In this document: piece after piece, positions 1,844 to 53,498 of the stretch | How the letters are laid out: every line of letters begins with the position of its first letter | How positions within the stretch are numbered: position 1 is the first letter of the stretch | Assembly: GCA_007134735.1 (NCBI GenBank) | Contig: SLKG01000082.1 | Coordinates: forward strand, 2,731-66,730 | From: Kiritimatiellia bacterium | GTDB lineage: Bacteria; Verrucomicrobiota; Kiritimatiellia; SLAD01 | Length of the DNA stretch: 64,000 bases | Direction: 5' to 3' | Notes under the pieces: model-generated | Seen by the model: only the letters and a program-made list of their open reading frames with translations | What the model was told of the DNA's origin: nothing | The model's database searches: none | Position numbers and translations under genes: made by a program

Positions 1844-3748
1844 TTATCCCCTGTTTATCCAGATGGACAGAATGGCAATATCAGAGGGATTCACACCGGA
1901 AATTCTAGAGGCCTGGCCTAGATTTTCCGGGTGAATTTTCTTCAACTTTTCCCGGGCTTCATACCGCAACGCACGAATGGCATCGTAGTCCAGATCGAGA
2001 GGGATACGTTGGTGCTCGAGCTTTCCCGCTTTTGCAATTCTCTTTTTCTCTCGATCTATATATCCCGAGTATTTGATATTAATCTCAATTTGGGCGACGA
2101 TTTCCGCATCCAAAGATGTATCGTGACCAGGGAGATCATGATACGCAACACCTTGCCTTCGAAGCATTTGTGACAATGATGCGCCGCTCACCCTCGTTGT
2201 TTCCAGTCGATTAATCTCCTCTTCTATTTCCTTTCTATGACTCTTTGTTTCCAGAATTTCCTCATGTGAACAAATTCCAATCCTCTGTGCATGATCTAAA
2301 AGACGAAAACACGCGTTGTCCTGCCTTAATACAAGCCGGTGCTCAGCTCTCGAGGTGAACATTCGATAAGGTTCATCAGTTCCCTTTGTGACTAGATCGT
2401 CAATCAAAACACCCAGGTATCCCTCATGCCGCGTTATGATGAGCGGCTCCTCGCCACGGATCTTTAGCACGGCATTAACCCCCGCAATAAATCCTTGCCC
2501 CGCCGCCTCTTCATATCCGGTAGTTCCGTTAACCTGGCCGGCAAGATATAGATTTTCAACAAGCATAGACTCAAGCGTATGATAAAGCTGCGTCGGATCC
2601 AGGTAATCATACTCAATGGCATAACCGGGCTTTAAGAATACAGCTCCCTCTAATCCCGGAATCGAATGAATCATCTCCTCCTGGACCTCCTGGGGAAGAC
2701 TGTTGGATGTTCCGTTGGGATAGATTTCAGGAGAAATGCGGCCTTCTGGCTCTATGAAGACATGATGCCGATCCCTGTCTCTGAACTTTACAATCTTATC
2801 CTCAATGGAAGGACAATACCGAACACCCGTCCCTTCGATCATCCCCCCGTACAAAGCGCTGCGACCCAAATTCCTTTCAATGATTTGATGGGTTTGCTCC
2901 GTCGTGTGAGTCAAATAACAGTCAATTTGACGAGTCCCGGGAAACCATGGCTTAAGCGGATTCCCCGATTGTTCCACGTGGAACAATTCATCCGTTGCAC
3001 CCGGTCCGGCCTTTTGTTGTTCCACGTGGAACAACCGCCAATCTCGCTTTGCCGCCCGCGAGAAAAACGGAGGGGGATCATATCCCGGCTGGACTTCCAT
3101 TCGACCGAAATTAATGCTTTCCCGATGCAACCTGGGAGGGGTCCCCGTCTTCAGCCTTCCCATTCGAAACCCCAACTTATTAAATGACTGACTTAATTGA
3201 TACGCCCCTTTCTCCCCAAGCCGACCGCCGGGATAACATCGGTCACCAATGTAGATTTTTCCTCCAAGAAACGTGCCTGTCGCGATTATTACACAGCGGC
3301 CAGCGATTCGAGATCCGCCCTCTGTGATCACACCCCTCACTTTTCCATCTTTTATCCACAGGTTACCAACAAGGACCTCGATAACCTCGATATTGGATGT
3401 CATTTGGATGACAGCCTTGATGCGCTCGGGGTAGGCAGTCTTCTCCGACTGAATGCGATGGGCTTGGACGGCGGGTCCTTTTCGGGTGTTCAGGGTTCGA
3501 AACTGGATTCCCGTATAATCCGCATTCCGAGCCATCTCTCCACCCAAGGCATCCAGTTCGCATACAATATGGGATTTCGCCATTCCTCCGATCGATGGAT
3601 TGCATGACATACGGGCAATGGAATCAAAAGAAGCTGTGACCAGTGCCGTGCGAGCCCCCATGCGCGCGGAAGCCAGAGCAGCCTCACAGCCGGCATGACC
3701 CGCACCCACAACAATCACGTCGTACTCTGTGTCAAGATATTTATTCAT
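1844..3748 (-). CDS. mnmG: tRNA uridine-5-carboxymethylaminomethyl(34) synthesis enzyme MnmG (GidA)
   Basis: 634 aa; N-terminal FAD motif [15 protein letters not shown], conserved [11 protein letters not shown] block, full-length colinearity with GidA; carries a ~28-aa in-frame insertion encoded by two palindromes (see parS features). Confidence 0.95.
2970..2985. other. parS-like centromere site (TGTTCCACGTGGAACA), copy 1, inside mnmG
   Basis: Perfect 16-bp palindrome matching ParB-binding parS consensus tGTTNCACGTGAAACa (Pseudomonas-type variant); read in-frame as LFHVEQ. Confidence 0.6.
3018..3033. other. parS-like centromere site (TGTTCCACGTGGAACA), copy 2, inside mnmG
   Basis: Identical 16-bp palindrome 48 bp from copy 1; also encodes LFHVEQ in-frame. 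Confidence 0.6.
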
Positions 3749-22536: not shown

Positions 22537-22647
22537 AAGGAATCTCCGCGTTGAAGAGCAGTCCCTGGTTCAACATGCTGAAAGGCTAAGGAATTAACAT
22601 GATGCGGTCAAACTTCAAGCGCCCCTGAATGGTCTTTCTGTTCTTAT

Positions 22648-22725
22648 GGAGGGCGAGGCTCCCGCCGAGCCGGGAAATCACCGACACACCCGGTGCTCCA
22701 CGGCTCGGCGGGAGCCTTGCCCTCC
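22648..22725. repeat. REP-like hairpin element, family 1 (GGAGGGCGAGGCTCCCGCCGAGCCG ... CGGCTCGGCGGGAGCCTTGCCCTCC)
   Basis: 25-bp arms around a 28-nt loop; related copies at 30668-30691 (half element) and in the 42.6-kb tandem array. Confidence 0.65.
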
Positions 22726-22919
22726 AGTATCGATCACATTGTTCACCCGTGGAGTTGAGTAAGACGCTGCGCTGAGCCGCGCATCAACGGATGGTCTGTC
22801 CGGAAATATTCCGGGGAGGAGACATTGAGCGTGTTCCCGGGAGCGCCCCCCCCCGAAAGCACGGGCCGGATGGGCCGAACCCCTCCCCCTCGCAGGGAGG
22901 GAGGGGAGGCCACCGCGGA

Positions 22920-30627: not shown

Positions 30628-30667
30628 TGCGGGGAAGCGTCCGAGGTCACGCGGGAGTCTGCTTCAC

Positions 30668-30691
30668 GGCTCGGCGGGAGCCTCGCCCTCC
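30668..30691. repeat. half copy of REP-like family 1 element (CGGCTCGGCGGGAGCCTCGCCCTCC)
   Basis: Downstream of GH57 giant gene / upstream of aminotransferase. Confidence 0.5.
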
Positions 30692-30726
30692 ATGCAAATA
30701 AAGCGGTTATTGCCCTATTCTCGCGC

Positions 30727-39739: not shown

Positions 39740-41374
39740 ATGAACAAAATCCAACGAGCCATCATTAGTGTCAGCGACAAAACAAACATGGTGGAGTTTG
39801 CCTCCGCATTGGCGGAAATGGGCGTTGAAATACTGTCCACCGGGGGAACGGCCGGCGCGTTGCGCGATGCCGGCATCGCCGTCACCGATGTGTCTGAATT
39901 CACCGGGTTTCCCGAGATGCTCGACGGGCGCGTCAAGACACTTCACCCGCACGTGCACGCCGGCATCCTTTTTCGCCGGGACCGGGCGGAGCATGTGCAA
40001 ACCATGAAGGAACACCGATTGGCGCCGGTTGACCTGGTTTGTGTCAATCTGTATCCCTTTGAAGACACGATCGCCGATAAAACCGCCTCGTTTGAGGACG
40101 CGATCGAGAACATCGACATCGGCGGCCCTGCCATGCTTCGGTCCGCCGCCAAGAATTTCAGTGCCGTCACCGTCGTCGTCGATCCGGCCGATTATACCCG
40201 CGTACTGGAGGACATGAAGACCCACCAGGGGCAAACCACGGAAGCCCTTCGGATGGAACTGGCGCAAAAAGTGTTCGCACGGCTGGCGGCGTACAATGCC
40301 GCCATCGCGCACTATCTCTGCGAACACATCCCGGCGGAGAAGCAGGCGCCGCCCTTTGTGTTGGCCTATGGCGCGGGAACCACCCTGCGGTACGGGGAGA
40401 ACCCACACCAGGAAGCGGCGCTCTACCGGGATGCGCACACCTCCGGCGCAACGCTGGCCCACGCGGAGCAATGGCACGGGAAGGAGCTTTCCTACAACAA
40501 TTATCTCGATGGCGACGCCGCCCTGGAAGCGGCCCGGGAGCTGGCCGATCAAACCGGTGTGGCCATCATCAAGCATTCCAATCCCTGTGGCTACGCCACG
40601 GGAAAGAATCTTTCCGAAGCGTTTGAAGCGGCCTGGGCCGGCGATCCGGTTTCGGCGTTCGGCAGCGTGATCGCGGTTACACGGCGGGTAACGCTCGACA
40701 TGGCCGAGCAGTTGAAAGGGCGTTTCGTCGAGGTACTGATCGCGCCGGACTTTGACAAAGACGCGCTGGAATACCTCAAGCAAAAGAGCGCCAGCCTGCG
40801 CCTCCTCAAGCTCACGCGCCCCCTGGCCCCGCTTCCGCCGGGAAATACGGTTCGCCCGATTTCCGGCGGATTGCTTGTCCAGAGCCGCGATATCGGGCTG
40901 ATGGATAACTGGTTTGTGCCGACGGAAACACCGTTTCCGGAAGAACGCCGCGCATTGGCTGAATTCGGCATCGCCGCCTGTAAACACGTCAAATCCAACG
41001 CTATTGTCATCGTACGCGAGTACGCGCCGGGCCAATTCATGCAACTGGGCATGGGGGCCGGCCAACCGAACCGGGTGGACGCCCTGCGCAAACTGGCGCT
41101 GGCACGTTGTACCGAAAACATGGAAAAATTATTCGCGACCGAGAAGGTATATGGAAAAACCCTTCCGGAATATCAAATGGAGATTCTGCACGATTGCGTG
41201 TTGGTGTCCGACGCCTTCTTCCCGTTCGCCGACAGCATTGAATACGCGGCGGAGGCCGGCATCCGCAATATCGTTCAACCCGGCGGATCAAAACGGGACG
41301 AAGAAGTAATCTCCAAGTGCGATCAATACGGCATTGCCATGGCCTTCACCGGGATGCGCCATTTCCGGCATTAA
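39740..41374 (+). CDS. purH: bifunctional AICAR transformylase / IMP cyclohydrolase
   Basis: 544 aa; MGS-like N-domain ISVSDKT...LSTGGTA and AICARFT domain; ends MRHFRH. Confidence 0.95.
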   Translation: MNKIQRAIISVSDKTNMVEFASALAEMGVEILSTGGTAGALRDAGIAVTDVSEFTGFPEMLDGRVKTLHPHVHAGILFRRDRAEHVQTMKEHRLAPVDLVCVNLYPFEDTIADKTASFEDAIENIDIGGPAMLRSAAKNFSAVTVVVDPADYTRVLEDMKTHQGQTTEALRMELAQKVFARLAAYNAAIAHYLCEHIPAEKQAPPFVLAYGAGTTLRYGENPHQEAALYRDAHTSGATLAHAEQWHGKELSYNNYLDGDAALEAARELADQTGVAIIKHSNPCGYATGKNLSEAFEAAWAGDPVSAFGSVIAVTRRVTLDMAEQLKGRFVEVLIAPDFDKDALEYLKQKSASLRLLKLTRPLAPLPPGNTVRPISGGLLVQSRDIGLMDNWFVPTETPFPEERRALAEFGIAACKHVKSNAIVIVREYAPGQFMQLGMGAGQPNRVDALRKLALARCTENMEKLFATEKVYGKTLPEYQMEILHDCVLVSDAFFPFADSIEYAAEAGIRNIVQPGGSKRDEEVISKCDQYGIAMAFTGMRHFRH

Positions 41375-41463
41375 GACCGAAGAGGGTCGTGCGGCGCTTC
41401 GCATACGCTCGTCCCTTTGTTCCGGCATCCTTGCGCACGGACCGAAACCTCCGTGGCTCCGGG

Positions 41464-42114
41464 TCACCGCTTCCGCCGAGTTCGGGCAACATCTCGCGAC
41501 AGGGTGATGATCGTCTTGGGAAGAAAAGGCGCCGCTTCCTTGGGAATGACGATATGGAGCCGGTGCATGGCCCCCGACAAATACGGCAAGTCCGGCGTGT
41601 GGCCGGCATCAAAAATAGATTGCAGGTCGTCCATGTCCTTGGCTCGCAGGCGCGTCGAGGATAAGGCATGCAGCTTGGAGAGAATGACATCTTCGAGCGT
41701 GAGCACCGGCACCGGGCCAAAACCGAAATTCACCTGGTTGAATTGCGCGCGTGTTACGGCCTCCCCAGCCCAGGGAATGGCCGGTAGAAGGATATCAACG
41801 CCTTCTCCGGACGTGTCGTCCTTGGCGCGCCCAAACACCATGAGCGGTTTCGTGCTCTTGCGACGGATAGCGAAGAGCGGGCCGCCCGCCAGATCGGCCT
41901 CGCGGGCTATGCCCGCGTGCAAACCCAATGAACGGATGATTTCCGCGGCCGTTCGAAGTCCCTTCGTCCCGGTTGCTATGACCAAGTCCACATCCATGGT
42001 CAGCCGGGGCTCGCGCCGGTACAGGTCGGCGGCAAACCCGCCGGCCACGGCGAAGGGGACCTTTCTCCTGCGTAGTTCAGCCACGGCCGATTGGAACAGC
42101 TTATCGAGCTTCAT
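41464..42114 (-). CDS. minimal nucleotidyltransferase (AbiEii/DUF1814-like, Pol-beta superfamily)
   Basis: 216 aa; VAGGFAADLY...RLTMDVDLVI = G[GS]..x9-13 DxD NTase motif; overlaps upstream wHTH gene by 14 nt. Confidence 0.5.
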   Translation of the reverse strand: MKLDKLFQSAVAELRRRKVPFAVAGGFAADLYRREPRLTMDVDLVIATGTKGLRTAAEIIRSLGLHAGIAREADLAGGPLFAIRRKSTKPLMVFGRAKDDTSGEGVDILLPAIPWAGEAVTRAQFNQVNFGFGPVPVLTLEDVILSKLHALSSTRLRAKDMDDLQSIFDAGHTPDLPYLSGAMHRLHIVIPKEAAPFLPKTIITLSRDVARTRRKR

Positions 42115-42484
42115 CCTTCGATCTCCTTGCGTGCGCGCGGATTTTGTTCGCCCGGTTCAACAACGGTAGAATACGACGCGCCGTGCGATTCAAGGAACGG
42201 CTCCGCATTTTGATGAAGCCGCGTTCCGAAGCCTCAAATACCGGCATGAGCACCTCGGCATGCGGATGGTTCCGGTTCAGATGGTATAATGCGCGGGAGC
42301 CCCTTCGTTTCCTCTTCACCATTCCCGCTTCGACCAGTGAGGACAACGCCAATTCCGCTGAATGCGGGTGTACGTCTGCGAGTCTCGCCGCCTGCCGCAA
42401 ACCGATGGGATCCGCATGATGCGACAAGGCCCTCAGGATCTCCGCCTGGCTTACCGTACTAAATAATGTTCCCCAATTAGCCAT
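42101..42484 (-). CDS. winged-helix DNA-binding protein (MarR/ArsR-like), putative partner/antitoxin of the NTase
   Basis: 127 aa; predicted wHTH SQAEILRALSHHADPIGLRQAARLADVHPHSAELALSSLVEAGMV; translationally coupled to NTase. Confidence 0.5.
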   Translation of the reverse strand: MANWGTLFSTVSQAEILRALSHHADPIGLRQAARLADVHPHSAELALSSLVEAGMVKRKRRGSRALYHLNRNHPHAEVLMPVFEASERGFIKMRSRSLNRTARRILPLLNRANKIRAHARRSKDEAR

Positions 42485-42525
42485 AATTATATGTACAACT
42501 ATTTAGACACTTATTGCAACCGAAA

Positions 42526-42556
42526 AATGCCCGCACCGGATCCTGTGCGGGCTGTG
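42526..42556 (-). terminator. hairpin plus T-tract (minus strand) between repeat array and wHTH-NTase operon
   Basis: gcccgcac-aggatccg-gtgcgggc followed by aTTTTT on the minus strand. Confidence 0.4.
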
Positions 42557-42595
42557 TCAAGAAACCGCTCATACCGCAACCGCGGGATTCGCCCC

Positions 42596-42885
42596 CCCCA
42601 TATCAACGAATAACCGTTAATTTTAGGTGGAGGGCGAGGCTCTCGCCGAGCCGGGATCGCTCCGCACGCATCGCCTGTCTCCCGGCTCAGCAGGAGCTTC
42701 GCCCTCCATACCAACGAATAACTGTTGCTTTGTTGTTAAGGGCTGGGGCGAGGCTCTCGCCGAGCCGGGATCGCTCCGCACGCATCGCCTGTCTCACGGC
42801 TCAGCAGGAGCTTCGCCCTCCATCACCAACGAATAACAGTTGCTCTGTTGTTAAGGGCTGGGGCGAGGGTCTTGACGAGCCAGAA
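42596..42885. repeat. tandem array (~116-bp unit x 2.5) of long REP-like hairpins (family 1-related)
   Basis: Units begin CA(T/C)(A/C)CAACGAATAAC(C/T)GTT...; each contains GGAGGGCGAGGCTCTCGCCGAGCCGGGA / TCCCGGCTCAGCAGGAGCTTCGCCCTCC arms around a 25-nt loop; unit-to-unit identity >90%. Confidence 0.75.
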
Positions 42886-43004
42886 ATCGGTTTTGATACA
42901 GCCCCAGGACGGCGCTTTGTTGAACTACAGACGTGTTCAAGACGAGCTTATCACTCACGGCGATATTGCACGACAAGTTGTGTAATATCCGGGCTAAAAA
43001 ACCC

Positions 43005-44156
43005 CTACAACGCGCGATTCAAGATCGCACGTAATTCCTCATCGGTCAGTTCGATGGGATTGCCTTTCATGCTGCTCGATCGGCGGGATTTGGGGATGAT
43101 GTCGGCAAAATCCGTTTCGGCGATGCCGTATGCCGCCAACGGCGGAACATCAAGGGTTTCGCACAGGTCCCGCACCCAGGCAAGCCCGTCTTCGGTTCCG
43201 GCGCCGGGCCGTCCGGTCAGCATTTTCGCGATTTCTTCATAACGACACAACGACGTGTGATCCGGATCGCGCGCCTGCAGGGCCGTGATATTGGCTTCCA
43301 TGACAAACGGCAACAGCCGAGCGCACACCGCGCCGTGCGGCGCCGGGTACATGCCGCCGAGCGGTCCGGCCAAGCCGTGTACGGCGCCCAGCCGCGCGTT
43401 GGCCAGCGCCATCCCGCTGAAGAGTGCCGCAAGGCACATGTCTGAACGCGCCTTCGCGTCCCGCCCGTCTTCCCACGCCGTGCGCAAACTCCCCGCACGT
43501 CGCAAACCCTCGCGGCACACCGCGTCGGTGACCGGGTTCGCATTATCGCTCACGAAAACCTCCATAAGCTGGGTCAACGCGTCCAATCCCGACGCGGCCG
43601 TCGCCGCGCGCGGAAGATCGTACGTGAGTTCGGGATCCACCACGGCATATCGCGGCAGCATAAGATGACTTCGCATGCTGACCTTGACCCGGTGTTCCGG
43701 GGACCCCACCACGGCGTTACGGGTCACCTCGGCGCCGGTCCCGGCCGTGGTCGGAACGGCGATGAACGGCGCGGCGGGGCGCGCCAGCGGTTTGCCCCGG
43801 CCGATGATCTCAAGATAATCCGGCACATCGCCCTCGTTCGTCATCAGCGCGGAAATCATTTTGGCCGTATCCATTACGCTTCCGCCGCCGATGCCGACGA
43901 CCACATCGCAACCGGCTTCGCGCGCCCGATTCAAACCCTCCGCGATCGTTTCCGTGGTGGGTTCGCCGGAAACGCTGAACTCGGTTGCGCGGGTATTCTG
44001 ATCCTTAAGCCGACCGAGAAGCGCGGACGCGTATCGACGGGAACGGCCGGTTACGAGTAACACGTGTTTTCCCGATTCGGCCGCCAGGGCCGGCACGGTT
44101 CCGACGGTCCCTTCCCCGAAGATGATTCTTCCGGCTGTGGCAAATTCAAAGTTCAT
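43005..44156 (-). CDS. iron-containing alcohol dehydrogenase
   Basis: 383 aa; Fe-ADH signatures GGGSVMDTAK and metal-binding His cluster. Confidence 0.85.
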   Translation of the reverse strand: MNFEFATAGRIIFGEGTVGTVPALAAESGKHVLLVTGRSRRYASALLGRLKDQNTRATEFSVSGEPTTETIAEGLNRAREAGCDVVVGIGGGSVMDTAKMISALMTNEGDVPDYLEIIGRGKPLARPAAPFIAVPTTAGTGAEVTRNAVVGSPEHRVKVSMRSHLMLPRYAVVDPELTYDLPRAATAASGLDALTQLMEVFVSDNANPVTDAVCREGLRRAGSLRTAWEDGRDAKARSDMCLAALFSGMALANARLGAVHGLAGPLGGMYPAPHGAVCARLLPFVMEANITALQARDPDHTSLCRYEEIAKMLTGRPGAGTEDGLAWVRDLCETLDVPPLAAYGIAETDFADIIPKSRRSSSMKGNPIELTDEELRAILNRAL

Positions 44157-52490: not shown

Positions 52491-53057
52491 ATGTACAACG
52501 CGTCGGATTTGAGAAAAGGGTTGAAAATCGAAATCGATGGCGATCCCTGTGTGGTCGTGGATTTTCAGTTTGTGAAGCCCGGCAAGGGACAGGCGCTGTA
52601 TCGTTGCAAGATCAAGAACCTGATCACGGACGCCACCACGGACAAAACCTACCGATCCGTGGATAAAATCGACAAGCCAAACCTTGAAGAACGGGACTTG
52701 ATCTATTCGCATCCGGAAGGCCACCACCATGTCTTTATGGATACGGACACCTACGAACAGGTCATTATCGGGGAGGATATCCTGGGGGACCAGCGCTATT
52801 TCCTGGTGGAGGACATGGACGTCCAGGTGCTTTTCCACAACCATCGGCCGATTGAAATCACCTTGCCCTATTTCATTGAAAAGCGGATCGCGAAGACCGA
52901 ACCCGGGGCGCGGGGCGACACGGCGACGAACGTCTTGAAATCCGCGAAGCTGGACAACGGATACGAGATCCAGGTTCCTCTGTTCATCAATGAAGGCGAC
53001 CTGGTCCGAATCGACACACGTACCGGCAAGTACGCGGACCGGGTCAGCAAGGGGTGA
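52491..53057 (+). CDS. efp: translation elongation factor P
   Basis: 188 aa; KPGKGQA loop (modifiable Lys), three OB-like domains. Confidence 0.95.
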   Translation: MYNASDLRKGLKIEIDGDPCVVVDFQFVKPGKGQALYRCKIKNLITDATTDKTYRSVDKIDKPNLEERDLIYSHPEGHHHVFMDTDTYEQVIIGEDILGDQRYFLVEDMDVQVLFHNHRPIEITLPYFIEKRIAKTEPGARGDTATNVLKSAKLDNGYEIQVPLFINEGDLVRIDTRTGKYADRVSKG

Positions 53058-53187
53058 GGCCGCACGGCGGCTGAACCCAAGTTCGACAGTAGTTCTTTAA
53101 CGAAAGGAACATCTACTGTCGGGTCGATGCCCCATCGTACCATGTGGGTGGGTCTCGGTCGGAGAGGCCGCCGACCCTCCCGAAGAT

Positions 53188-53236
53188 GGAGGGTCACGCT
53201 TCCGCGTGACCCGGACGCGCGGAAGCGCGTCCCTCC
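53188..53236. repeat. REP-like hairpin element, family 2 (second copy)
   Basis: GGAGGGTCACGCTTCCGCGTGACCCGGACGCGCGGAAGCGCGTCCCTCC; preceded by additional hairpin gaccctcc-cgaagat-ggagggtc. Confidence 0.65.
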
Positions 53237-53498
53237 ATTATTCAAGAAACGGGCTTATCCGGCGGGAGAGACCGCGCGAGTCAGGGCGAAGCCGCAGGCG
53301 AAGACTGGGCCTCGCGGTCCTGAAAATGTAGTGGAGAAAAAGAGGAGCAAGGGAGTGCCTTTCTCGGAAATATCGCATTTTTTGCCTCGTAACCTTGGGT
53401 TAGAATTCAATATTCAATAGCCAGCCAACATGGAATGCCCAAGTTTTCAAATTGATTCCCGGGTTATTCCTTGTTGGATATTGGATATTCCATAATGC

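Follow-up and report, generated by a model that had tools for sequence, protein, structure and literature searches.

At about 42.6 kb, the window analysed here (the whole 64,000-nt stretch of a contig assigned to a Kiritimatiellia bacterium) carries a tandem array of long hairpins. It lies between a gene for an iron-dependent alcohol dehydrogenase (ADH) and a two-gene operon of toxin-antitoxin (TA) appearance, which encodes a winged helix-turn-helix (wHTH) protein and an AbiEii-family nucleotidyltransferase (NTase). The genes flanking the array are all on the minus strand, and a terminator-like hairpin separates the array from the TA operon. The array itself is ordinary, being a local amplification of a selfish-looking palindromic repeat that is also found at unrelated intergenic sites. 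We consider it, with a probability of roughly 0.8, to be a cluster of repetitive extragenic palindromic (REP) dimers, resembling bacterial interspersed mosaic elements (BIMEs) and clusters of REP doublets forming hairpins (REPINs), that originated when a REP dimer and about 34 nt of its flank were amplified locally in tandem. The underlying REP family, which carries no tag, extends across phyla and has apparently not been described before.

Anatomy of the array

Tandem Repeats Finder detected a single strong tandem array in the window, at 42632–42881, with a period of 114, 2.2 copies, 94% matches, no indels and a score of 451. If a degenerate spacer copy is included, the effective extent of the array is 42588–42881 (Table 1). 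An earlier reading of this DNA made from the letters alone (the sequence-only reading) had given about 116 bp and 2.5 copies; the tandem arrangement stands, with the period and copy number revised as above. It had also put the identity between units above 90%, which agrees with the array-wide value and with the 99% identity of units 1 and 2 over a 78-nt core in a repeat search. Each full unit is composed of an 81-nt hairpin and a spacer of about 34 nt. The hairpin is there as described, with arms of 29 nt for the proposed 28 or so and a loop of 23 nt in place of 25, and an inverted-repeat search found the arms of both full hairpins to be 86% complementary.

In hairpin 1, the left arm TGGAGGGCGAGGCTCTCGCCGAGCCGGGA and the right arm TCCCGGCTCAGCAGGAGCTTCGCCCTCCA enclose the 23-nt loop, and the sequence between the two hairpins is CCAACGAATAACNGTTGCTNTGTTGTTAAGG. 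The base of the left arm has decayed in hairpin 2, where GCTGGGG replaces TGGAGGG, and the third 'unit' is reduced to a decayed left arm that forms the ADH-side end of the array. Spacer copy 0 constitutes the TA-proximal edge, with a C8/G8 run just before it; this homopolymer of eight C on the plus strand and eight G on the minus strand, at 42592–42599, coincides exactly with the array edge.

Unit 1 folds at −58.4 kcal/mol on the minus strand and −59.0 kcal/mol on the plus strand (z about −7), and unit 2 at −43.4 and −44.7 kcal/mol on the two strands (z −2.5). The hairpins thus fold with equal energy on both strands, without asymmetry, and the first spacer is unstructured (42709–42745 folds at −3.6 kcal/mol, z −0.1). 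An independent NCBI assembly (GCA_003567595.1, locus L003) has the same array without a single difference, and the array is therefore not an assembly artefact of the window.

Table 1. Features of the array, of its neighbourhood and of the two solitary copies of the repeat in the window
Feature	Position	Strand	Details
Spacer copy 0, degenerate, CCCCCCATATCAACGAATAACCGTTAATTTTAGG	42594–42627	none	76% and 67% to the other two spacers; repeat match 42594–42635
Hairpin 1, REP dimer	42628–42708	none	Arms 42628–42656 and 42680–42708
Spacer 1, TACCAACGAATAACTGTTGCTTTGTTGTTAAGG	42709–42741	none	Repeat search and folding
Hairpin 2	42742–42822	none	Arms 42742–42770 and 42794–42822
Spacer 2	42823–42856	none	Repeat search
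Decayed third left arm, GCTGGGGCGAGGGTCTTGACGAGCC	42857–42881	none	91% in repeat family; 4 mismatches to core
Fe-dependent alcohol dehydrogenase gene	43005–44156	minus	Pfam Fe-ADH 2.7e-48, ADH_Fe_C 3.7e-37
Intrinsic-terminator-like hairpin, between array and TA operon	42519–42552	minus	Stem 42552–42529
127-aa wHTH protein, presumed antitoxin/repressor	42101–42484	minus	Pfam HTH_IclR 9.8e-5, MarR_2 4.4e-4; PADLOC PDC-M05A, Csa3 wHTH
216-aa AbiEii-family nucleotidyltransferase, putative toxin	41464–42114	minus	Pfam AbiEii 2.5e-9; PADLOC AbiEii 1.8e-7
Solitary REP dimer, same family	22647–22726	none	26-nt arms 96% complementary, 28-nt loop, −75.6 kcal/mol
Solitary single REP arm, same family	30667–30692	minus	Arm match; no hairpin

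A dispersed core shared across genomes

The arms of the hairpins contain a sharply bounded 26-nt core, GGGAGGGCGAGGCTCC[C/T]GCCGAGCCG, which is preceded by a weak YY and in which overlapping internal palindromes can be read. At up to three mismatches, the 24-mer arm GGCGAGGCTCYCGCCGAGCCGGGA matches the window four times, where 100 shuffles give an expectation of 0.00: two in the array, one in the dimer at 22647–22726 and one in the arm at 30667–30692. This short imperfect palindrome is thus found at three loci in 64 kb, where none is expected, and all three are intergenic. The genes at the two solitary copies are unrelated to those at the array; the single arm follows the stop of a 1373-aa GH57-like gene and precedes the next gene, which runs in the same direction. 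The sequence-only reading had placed single arms at both 22648 and 30668. Both do belong to the same family, with a full hairpin at the former site and a lone arm at the latter.

Using the 21-mer GGGCGAGGCTCYCGCCGAGCC as a query, with one genome per species, we detected the core in at least 120 stretches (L005–L124) from metagenome-assembled genomes (MAGs) labelled as more than ten phyla, taxa being given here as the MAGs are labelled. Among the matches listed, most are Planctomycetota MAGs, and several MAGs each are labelled Verrucomicrobiota, Kiritimatiellae, Acidobacteriota and Armatimonadota (Chthonomonas, Fervidibacter). Nitrospirales, Binatia, Gemmatimonadaceae, Anaerolineae, Hydrogenedentota, Ignavibacteria, Victivallales, Alphaproteobacteria and Alcaligenaceae are represented by one MAG each among these matches. 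Several contigs per MAG carry the core in these other genomes. No copy was present in 482 kb of control loci, for which metagenome matches of the ADH protein were reused. The core is rare in IMG/VR (15 stretches), and a consensus-dimer search of the PLSDB plasmids returned chance-level partial matches only.

By a crude test on 120 loci, the arms are about two-fold depleted in long open frames (0.38 vs 0.71). Clustering of all open reading frames (ORFs) within 2.5 kb of the REPs at these loci showed the nearby genes to be unrelated, the sole recurrent families (DUF1501, PSCyt2/PSD1 and PQQ) being multi-copy Planctomycete paralogues. There was no association with toxin-antitoxin genes among the 120 sampled loci. 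Nor was a family resembling REP-associated tyrosine transposases (RAYTs), or any recurrent small gene family, found within this distance, although the test is weak, given that RAYTs are single-copy per genome.

The anatomy of the family was derived from 227–248 arms, the count varying with the mismatch cut-off. Inverted dimers numbered 62; their loops are mutually unrelated in sequence, and 2–87 nt (mostly 17–34) separate the matched 21-nt arm cores. The core also occurs as singletons and in tandem arrays. A Kiritimatiellae MAG (L032) has a 103-bp hairpin-and-spacer array built like that of the window, L093 has a complex core array, and L055, L105, L107 and L061 have same-strand arrays of the core plus 21–60 nt, those of L055 and L105 being single-arm arrays with periods of 58 and 60 bp. 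The inverted dimers reiterated in tandem with their flank in the window have analogues in L032, L093, L055, L105 and L107, and REP clusters of this kind, made of inverted dimers tandemly reiterated with flanking DNA, have been described (PMC3733652). At the level of sequence, these comparisons show that the core is a dispersed repeat and that arrays of this architecture exist at unrelated loci of other genomes. The assignment of the arms to a REP family, and of the array to BIME-like structures, in the sequence-only reading is upheld by the dispersed arms, the extragenic sites and the tandemly reiterated inverted dimers. That reading had also named the occurrence of identical arrays at many unrelated loci as a sign of a plain REP/BIME cluster, against a role as a non-coding RNA (ncRNA); the arms and the architecture do recur in this way, but the exact 114-bp unit, sought by its spacer in JGI metagenome contigs, was not found elsewhere.

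Other kinds of repeat were considered and rejected. A miniature inverted-repeat transposable element (MITE) with target-site duplication was dismissed on finding no excess of such duplications around 60 REP dimers over shuffled partners. Integron attC sites were discarded by inspection, the copies being dispersed rather than set in a cassette array and having no visible R'/R'' consensus. For the 58–60-nt arrays of L055 and L105, a CRISPR was rejected, as the 'spacers' too are repeats and an inverted arm closes the arrays.

Covariation was analysed in an alignment (A2) of the 62 dimers, comprising the arms and 6 flanking nt, with a fixed linker in place of the loops. At the 26 core pairs, the sequence is invariant or changes on a single side: 23 of them have no double-sided change, and the eight cells with such changes all fall at the three outermost pairs. 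Position 13 (C/T), the single polymorphic position of the core, forms a Watson-Crick pair in only 21 of the 62 dimers, below the expectation under independence. Most dimers combine a canonical arm with a variant arm (T13, or A7/T13/T16), and the A7/T13/T16 variant, from which the two hairpins of the array have their right arms, recurs in Planctomycetaceae, Fuerstiella and other MAGs. This pattern of variation and the mismatched heterodimers indicate that it is the sequence, mismatches included, that is conserved, and not the base pairing. In this covariation analysis of the hairpin, a check that the sequence-only reading had suggested, compensatory changes are almost absent from the core.

The sole covariation signal of the alignment comes from outside the core. 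There, the adjoining 3–6 nt (A2 columns 1–6 and 63–68) are locus-specific and are complementary more often than in shuffled partners, with a mean consecutive-pair run of 1.18 against 0.54 ± 0.10 and 107 double-sided-change cells against 78.7 ± 7.9 (0 of 500 shuffles reached the observed value). Their consensus is a weak TTYC...GRAA. Such complementary flanks could come from insertion into small palindromic targets or from the generation of arms by local inverted duplication. No Rfam family matches the array at the gathering score, and the sole match in the window is a tRNA. Relaxing the E-value brought chance-level matches to miRNA, snoRNA and sRNA models, the best being a plant miRNA model with 26.9 of 168 bits.

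The sharp edges of the core, the mismatched heterodimer subtypes that recur across taxa and the locus-specific complementary flanks lead us to propose, tentatively and with less confidence than we have in the nature of the array, that the core is an undescribed, untagged REP/REPIN-like mobile element, spread or maintained across very distant phyla through some mobilizing or recognizing enzyme. By MAG label, these phyla would include Planctomycetota, Verrucomicrobiota, Kiritimatiellota, Acidobacteriota, Armatimonadota and others. Should this hold, the 42.6-kb array would represent one local amplification of that element. A string search of the searchable literature found neither the core sequence nor its pseudo-peptides, and Rfam has no model for it. 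While the result for the array mainly clears the record, its by-product, a core with the same mismatched arm variants in more than ten labelled phyla, is of greater interest.

Six-frame ORFs across the core (L007 3643–4904 and other loci) yield recurrent pseudo-peptides, namely ...GSAGASPS..., ...LGGSLALP..., ...ARREPRPP... and ...GGRGSRRAVA.... In REP-bearing genomes, these are likely to be prone to annotation as spurious hypothetical proteins, and similar peptides appear in annotations of genomes of the Planctomycetes-Verrucomicrobia-Chlamydiae (PVC) group. A second REP-like element lies in the window at 53186–53238, downstream of ORF 52491–53057. It consists of two adjacent mini-hairpins with 8-bp stems, GGTCACGC-TTCC-GCGTGACC and GGACGCGC-GGAA-GCGCGTCC, bracketed by ATGGAGGG...CCCTCCAT termini, as in the family of the array. 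In addition, a perfect 18-nt palindrome of operator-like appearance, TTGTTCCACGTGGAACAA, occurs twice, 51 nt apart, at 2966–3037, a place that a crude ORF map puts within the long minus-strand ORF 1844–3748 or at its 5' end.

Transcription, neighbouring operon and alternative explanations

The ADH stop codon lies about 123–124 nt from the array. Beyond the array, the minus strand carries the terminator-like hairpin GCCCGCAC-AGGATCCG-GTGCGGGC followed by the tail AUUUUUCGG (also given as ATTTTTCGGT), with a stem of 8 bp, 7 of them GC, and a folding energy of −17.5 kcal/mol; the terminator hairpin with a T-tract noted from the sequence is thus present, on the strand stated. A short AT-rich stretch separates it from the bicistronic TA operon. 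A scan of 42000–43300 for sigma-70-like consensus sequences gave no promoter-like site, and no terminator was detected between the ADH stop and the array in a scan of the minus strand. Given these two results, the array is probably transcribed as the 3' untranslated region (UTR) of the ADH mRNA. From this layout, the ADH transcript would end at the terminator-like hairpin, and it would be this terminator, and not the array, that insulates the TA operon from ADH transcription. The operon has an AT-rich region of its own upstream and, in the wHTH protein, a presumed protein antitoxin of its own. Any function of the array is probably incidental, of the kind known for REP, Correia and enterobacterial repetitive intergenic consensus (ERIC) sequences, rather than that of a dedicated RNA gene.

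AbiE is a bicistronic type IV TA system with a protein antitoxin (Dy et al. 2014, PMC3985639). By gene content and order, the operon next to the array has an AbiE-like type IV organization, with a wHTH gene followed by a DUF1814/AbiEii NTase gene, a pairing also found in homologues. The NTase scores 37.8 bits against Pfam AbiEii, for which the cut-off is 22.5, and the two genes overlap by 14 nt. Since a single homologue cluster (83% identity) was found for the wHTH protein, homologous operons were sought with the NTase, which has 218 homologues at E ≤ 1e-5, the 120 of the 218 that were listed being 57–91% identical. At eight loci, in five distinct genomic contexts, a small gene of 120–141 aa, in some cases an uncalled ORF, overlaps the start of the NTase gene. 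None of these homologous operons has an upstream tandem repeat or a REP arm. Judged from these sequences, the array is shown not to be a conserved component of the wHTH-AbiEii operon. One of the homologous loci (L126 1946–4663) presents two tandem AbiE-type pairs, a canonical AbiEi_1 and AbiEii pair followed by a small gene and AbiEii pair related to the operon of the window.

Variation at the locus is informative regarding the origin of the array. A contig from a different sample (L002; ENA ERZ27301261 k141_876696) lacks exactly one 114-bp unit, with the junction inside the arms and one flanking single-nucleotide polymorphism (SNP), and two Logan short-read contigs (L001 and L004) end inside the array. 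As the longest exact repeat between units, about 50–60 nt, is below the k=141 implied by the 'k141_' contig name, a true difference in copy number is plausible. The variation in unit number that the sequence-only reading had suggested checking between strains is thus indicated by this contig, with assembly collapse as the alternative.

The sister species, represented by short Logan contigs only, has the same ADH-TA-purH synteny, with identities of 87% for the ADH protein, 91% nt for the TA module and 85% nt for purH. Its contigs end 112 nt past the ADH stop, in spacer-like sequence, and its TA contig (L125) begins exactly at the TA-proximal array edge, right after the C8 run. Breaks at both array edges are what would be expected if a repeat in this place resisted assembly. 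Between the window and the sister species, the 123-nt stretch from the ADH stop to the array showed no conservation. Downstream of a more distant ADH homologue, of 74% identity, there is no TA operon and no REP, and a metagenome scan with the ADH protein found only relatives of at most about 63% identity.

Two further differences from the sister species concern the TA genes. At 41466–42374 these are 90.9% identical in nucleotides to a sister contig (L230), and the adjacent purH at 40729–41382 is 85.2% identical, which hints at recent exchange of the TA module or at stronger constraint. The intergenic segment of about 84 nt between the purH and NTase stops (41383–41465) is absent in the sister (L230 911–916), where the convergent genes are about 4 nt apart.

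The identity gradient along the array, together with the one-unit variant L002, leads us to infer that unequal recombination or slippage, acting between arms in direct repeat, duplicated a REP dimer along with its flank, and that units may still be gained and lost in the same way. Units 1 and 2 would be young or homogenized, and the outer copies would be decaying. Several observations weigh against this interpretation of the array as an amplified REP dimer. Among the 227 arms there is no conserved GTAG or CGTC tag at either end of the core (within 20 nt, GTAG occurs upstream of 7 and downstream of 8, and CGTC upstream of 7 and downstream of 14), the flank consensus consisting only of YY before GGGAGGG. 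No mobilizing enzyme for the family was found among the genes within 2.5 kb at the 120 loci, and the spacer of the exact 114-bp unit has no match in JGI metagenome contigs. The contig that is one unit shorter could be an assembly collapse. Lastly, the sister species apparently keeps a repeat at the array position, and this persistence could hint at selection.

Alternatively, the array could be a selected 3'-UTR element of the ADH mRNA, with stems that act as exonuclease barriers or RNase III sites and that, together with the terminator, set read-through into the TA operon. We regard this as rather unlikely, and it is in effect a sub-hypothesis of the REP-dimer explanation, concerning effect rather than origin. 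The array does lie directly downstream of the ADH stop and co-directional with it, the terminator is found beyond the array with neither terminator nor promoter-like site in between, the stems are very stable, and the repeat seems to be retained in the sister species. Moreover, E. coli REPs stabilize upstream mRNA, Neisseria Correia hairpins are RNase III substrates, and, more generally, REP, Correia and ERIC sequences provide long RNA stems that affect the 3'-end processing or stability of upstream mRNA. By analogy, the 26–29-bp RNA stems of the array could block exonucleases or be cut by RNase III, altering 3'-end processing or stability of the upstream mRNA. Against it stand the lack of conservation, in the sister species, of the 123 nt that separate the ADH stop from the array, the decay seen in unit 2 and in the third arm, and an apparently variable copy number. 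It is improbable that the array marks a junction at which a TA cassette was inserted in or next to a REP cluster, the REPs serving as integration hot-spots or as ends of a mobile unit. AbiEii operons do occur in unrelated contexts across genomes, the TA genes are closer to those of the sister species than the flanking purH is, and the array edge is exactly where homology to the sister TA module begins. Nevertheless, there is no REP arm on the other side of the cassette (41375–41463) and no target-site duplication around REP dimers, the synteny shared with the sister would make any insertion old, and the start of homology merely reflects a contig end.

The layout had also been likened to type III TA loci, with the repeats as an RNA antitoxin. 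In such loci, a ToxN, CptN or TenpN toxin gene is preceded by a terminator and this by tandem repeats, a recognizable promoter not being strictly required (PMC3401426), and the repeats of toxIN, cptIN and tenpIN have units of 31–62 nt in 1.9–5.6 copies (Blower et al. 2012, PMC3401426, Table 2). The window shares the one-strand order of repeats, palindromic terminator and protein genes, the array position is apparently conserved in the sister species, and the published definition is lenient as to promoters. The likeness does not extend to the parts themselves. The gene adjoining the terminator encodes the wHTH protein and no toxin, and the second gene encodes an AbiEii NTase, of a family that uses a protein antitoxin (PMC3985639), where an endoribonuclease toxin would be expected. 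Instead of being short and locus-specific, the repeat unit measures 114 nt and is built from a dispersed REP with copies beside unrelated genes. The five contexts of homologous operons, with eight loci, lack any repeat, and the core is without covariation, its folding without strand preference and the region 42000–43300 without a promoter-like site. Considering the 114-nt unit, the wHTH gene next to it and the protein antitoxin of the AbiEii family, the resemblance to type III loci is a coincidence of layout. It is very improbable that a repeat RNA neutralizes or regulates the NTase, or that the array is a dedicated cis-regulatory ncRNA of the TA operon. The probability that the tandem structure results from misassembly is closer still to nil: short-read assemblies break or differ at the array, but the independent NCBI assembly reproduces it, and unit-specific SNPs and distinct spacers order the units unambiguously.

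Comparison with known systems

Correia elements of Neisseria and the ERIC sequences, or intergenic repeat units (IRUs), of Yersinia are dispersed intergenic inverted repeats that are co-transcribed with flanking genes and form mRNA-modulating hairpins. They are MITE-like units of 100–160 bp with terminal inverted repeats and duplications of a TA target. The window family, in contrast, conserves the 26-nt arm only, its loops are unrelated and there is no detectable target-site duplication.

With the type III systems ToxIN, CptIN and TenpIN, the locus has in common the order of its parts on one strand and a copy number of about 2–3, which is within their range. It differs in having 114-nt units with long-stem hairpins of a dispersed family where type III loci have 31–62-nt locus-specific pseudoknot units, and in having a wHTH gene and an AbiEii NTase, from operons that are repeat-free in homologues, in place of ToxN, CptN or TenpN. 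To the AbiE type IV TA and MenAT systems (PMC3985639, PMC11375011), the operon corresponds in being a bicistronic unit whose overlapping genes encode first a wHTH protein and then a DUF1814/AbiEii NTase. The upstream protein of the window is a 127-aa protein, unlike canonical AbiEi, which is a longer two-domain protein. As the AbiE family involves no RNA repeat, the array falls outside the TA system.

The array and its family are most similar to the REP clusters or BIMEs of Enterobacteria and Pseudomonas and to REPINs (Bertels & Rainey 2011, PMC3116915; Di Nocera et al. 2013, PMC3733652), with which they share a core of about 26 nt with internal palindromes, present at many intergenic sites. 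As in REPINs, the copies are mostly inverted dimers with spacers of 20–35 nt that form long hairpins, singletons also occur, and arm subtypes are combined as heterodimers. In contrast to tagged REPs, the window family has no GTAG or CGTC tag at either end and, by the weak test mentioned, no RAYT near the roughly 120 sampled loci; membership in the RAYT-mobilized, GTAG/CGTC-tagged REP superfamilies is not supported. REPIN-RAYT systems have been described as lineage-specific and vertically inherited, whereas the window core is identical in sequence across MAGs assigned to many phyla. REPINs being thought of as lineage-bound, a REP-like element that crosses phyla would, if real, raise the question of what moves or preserves its core.

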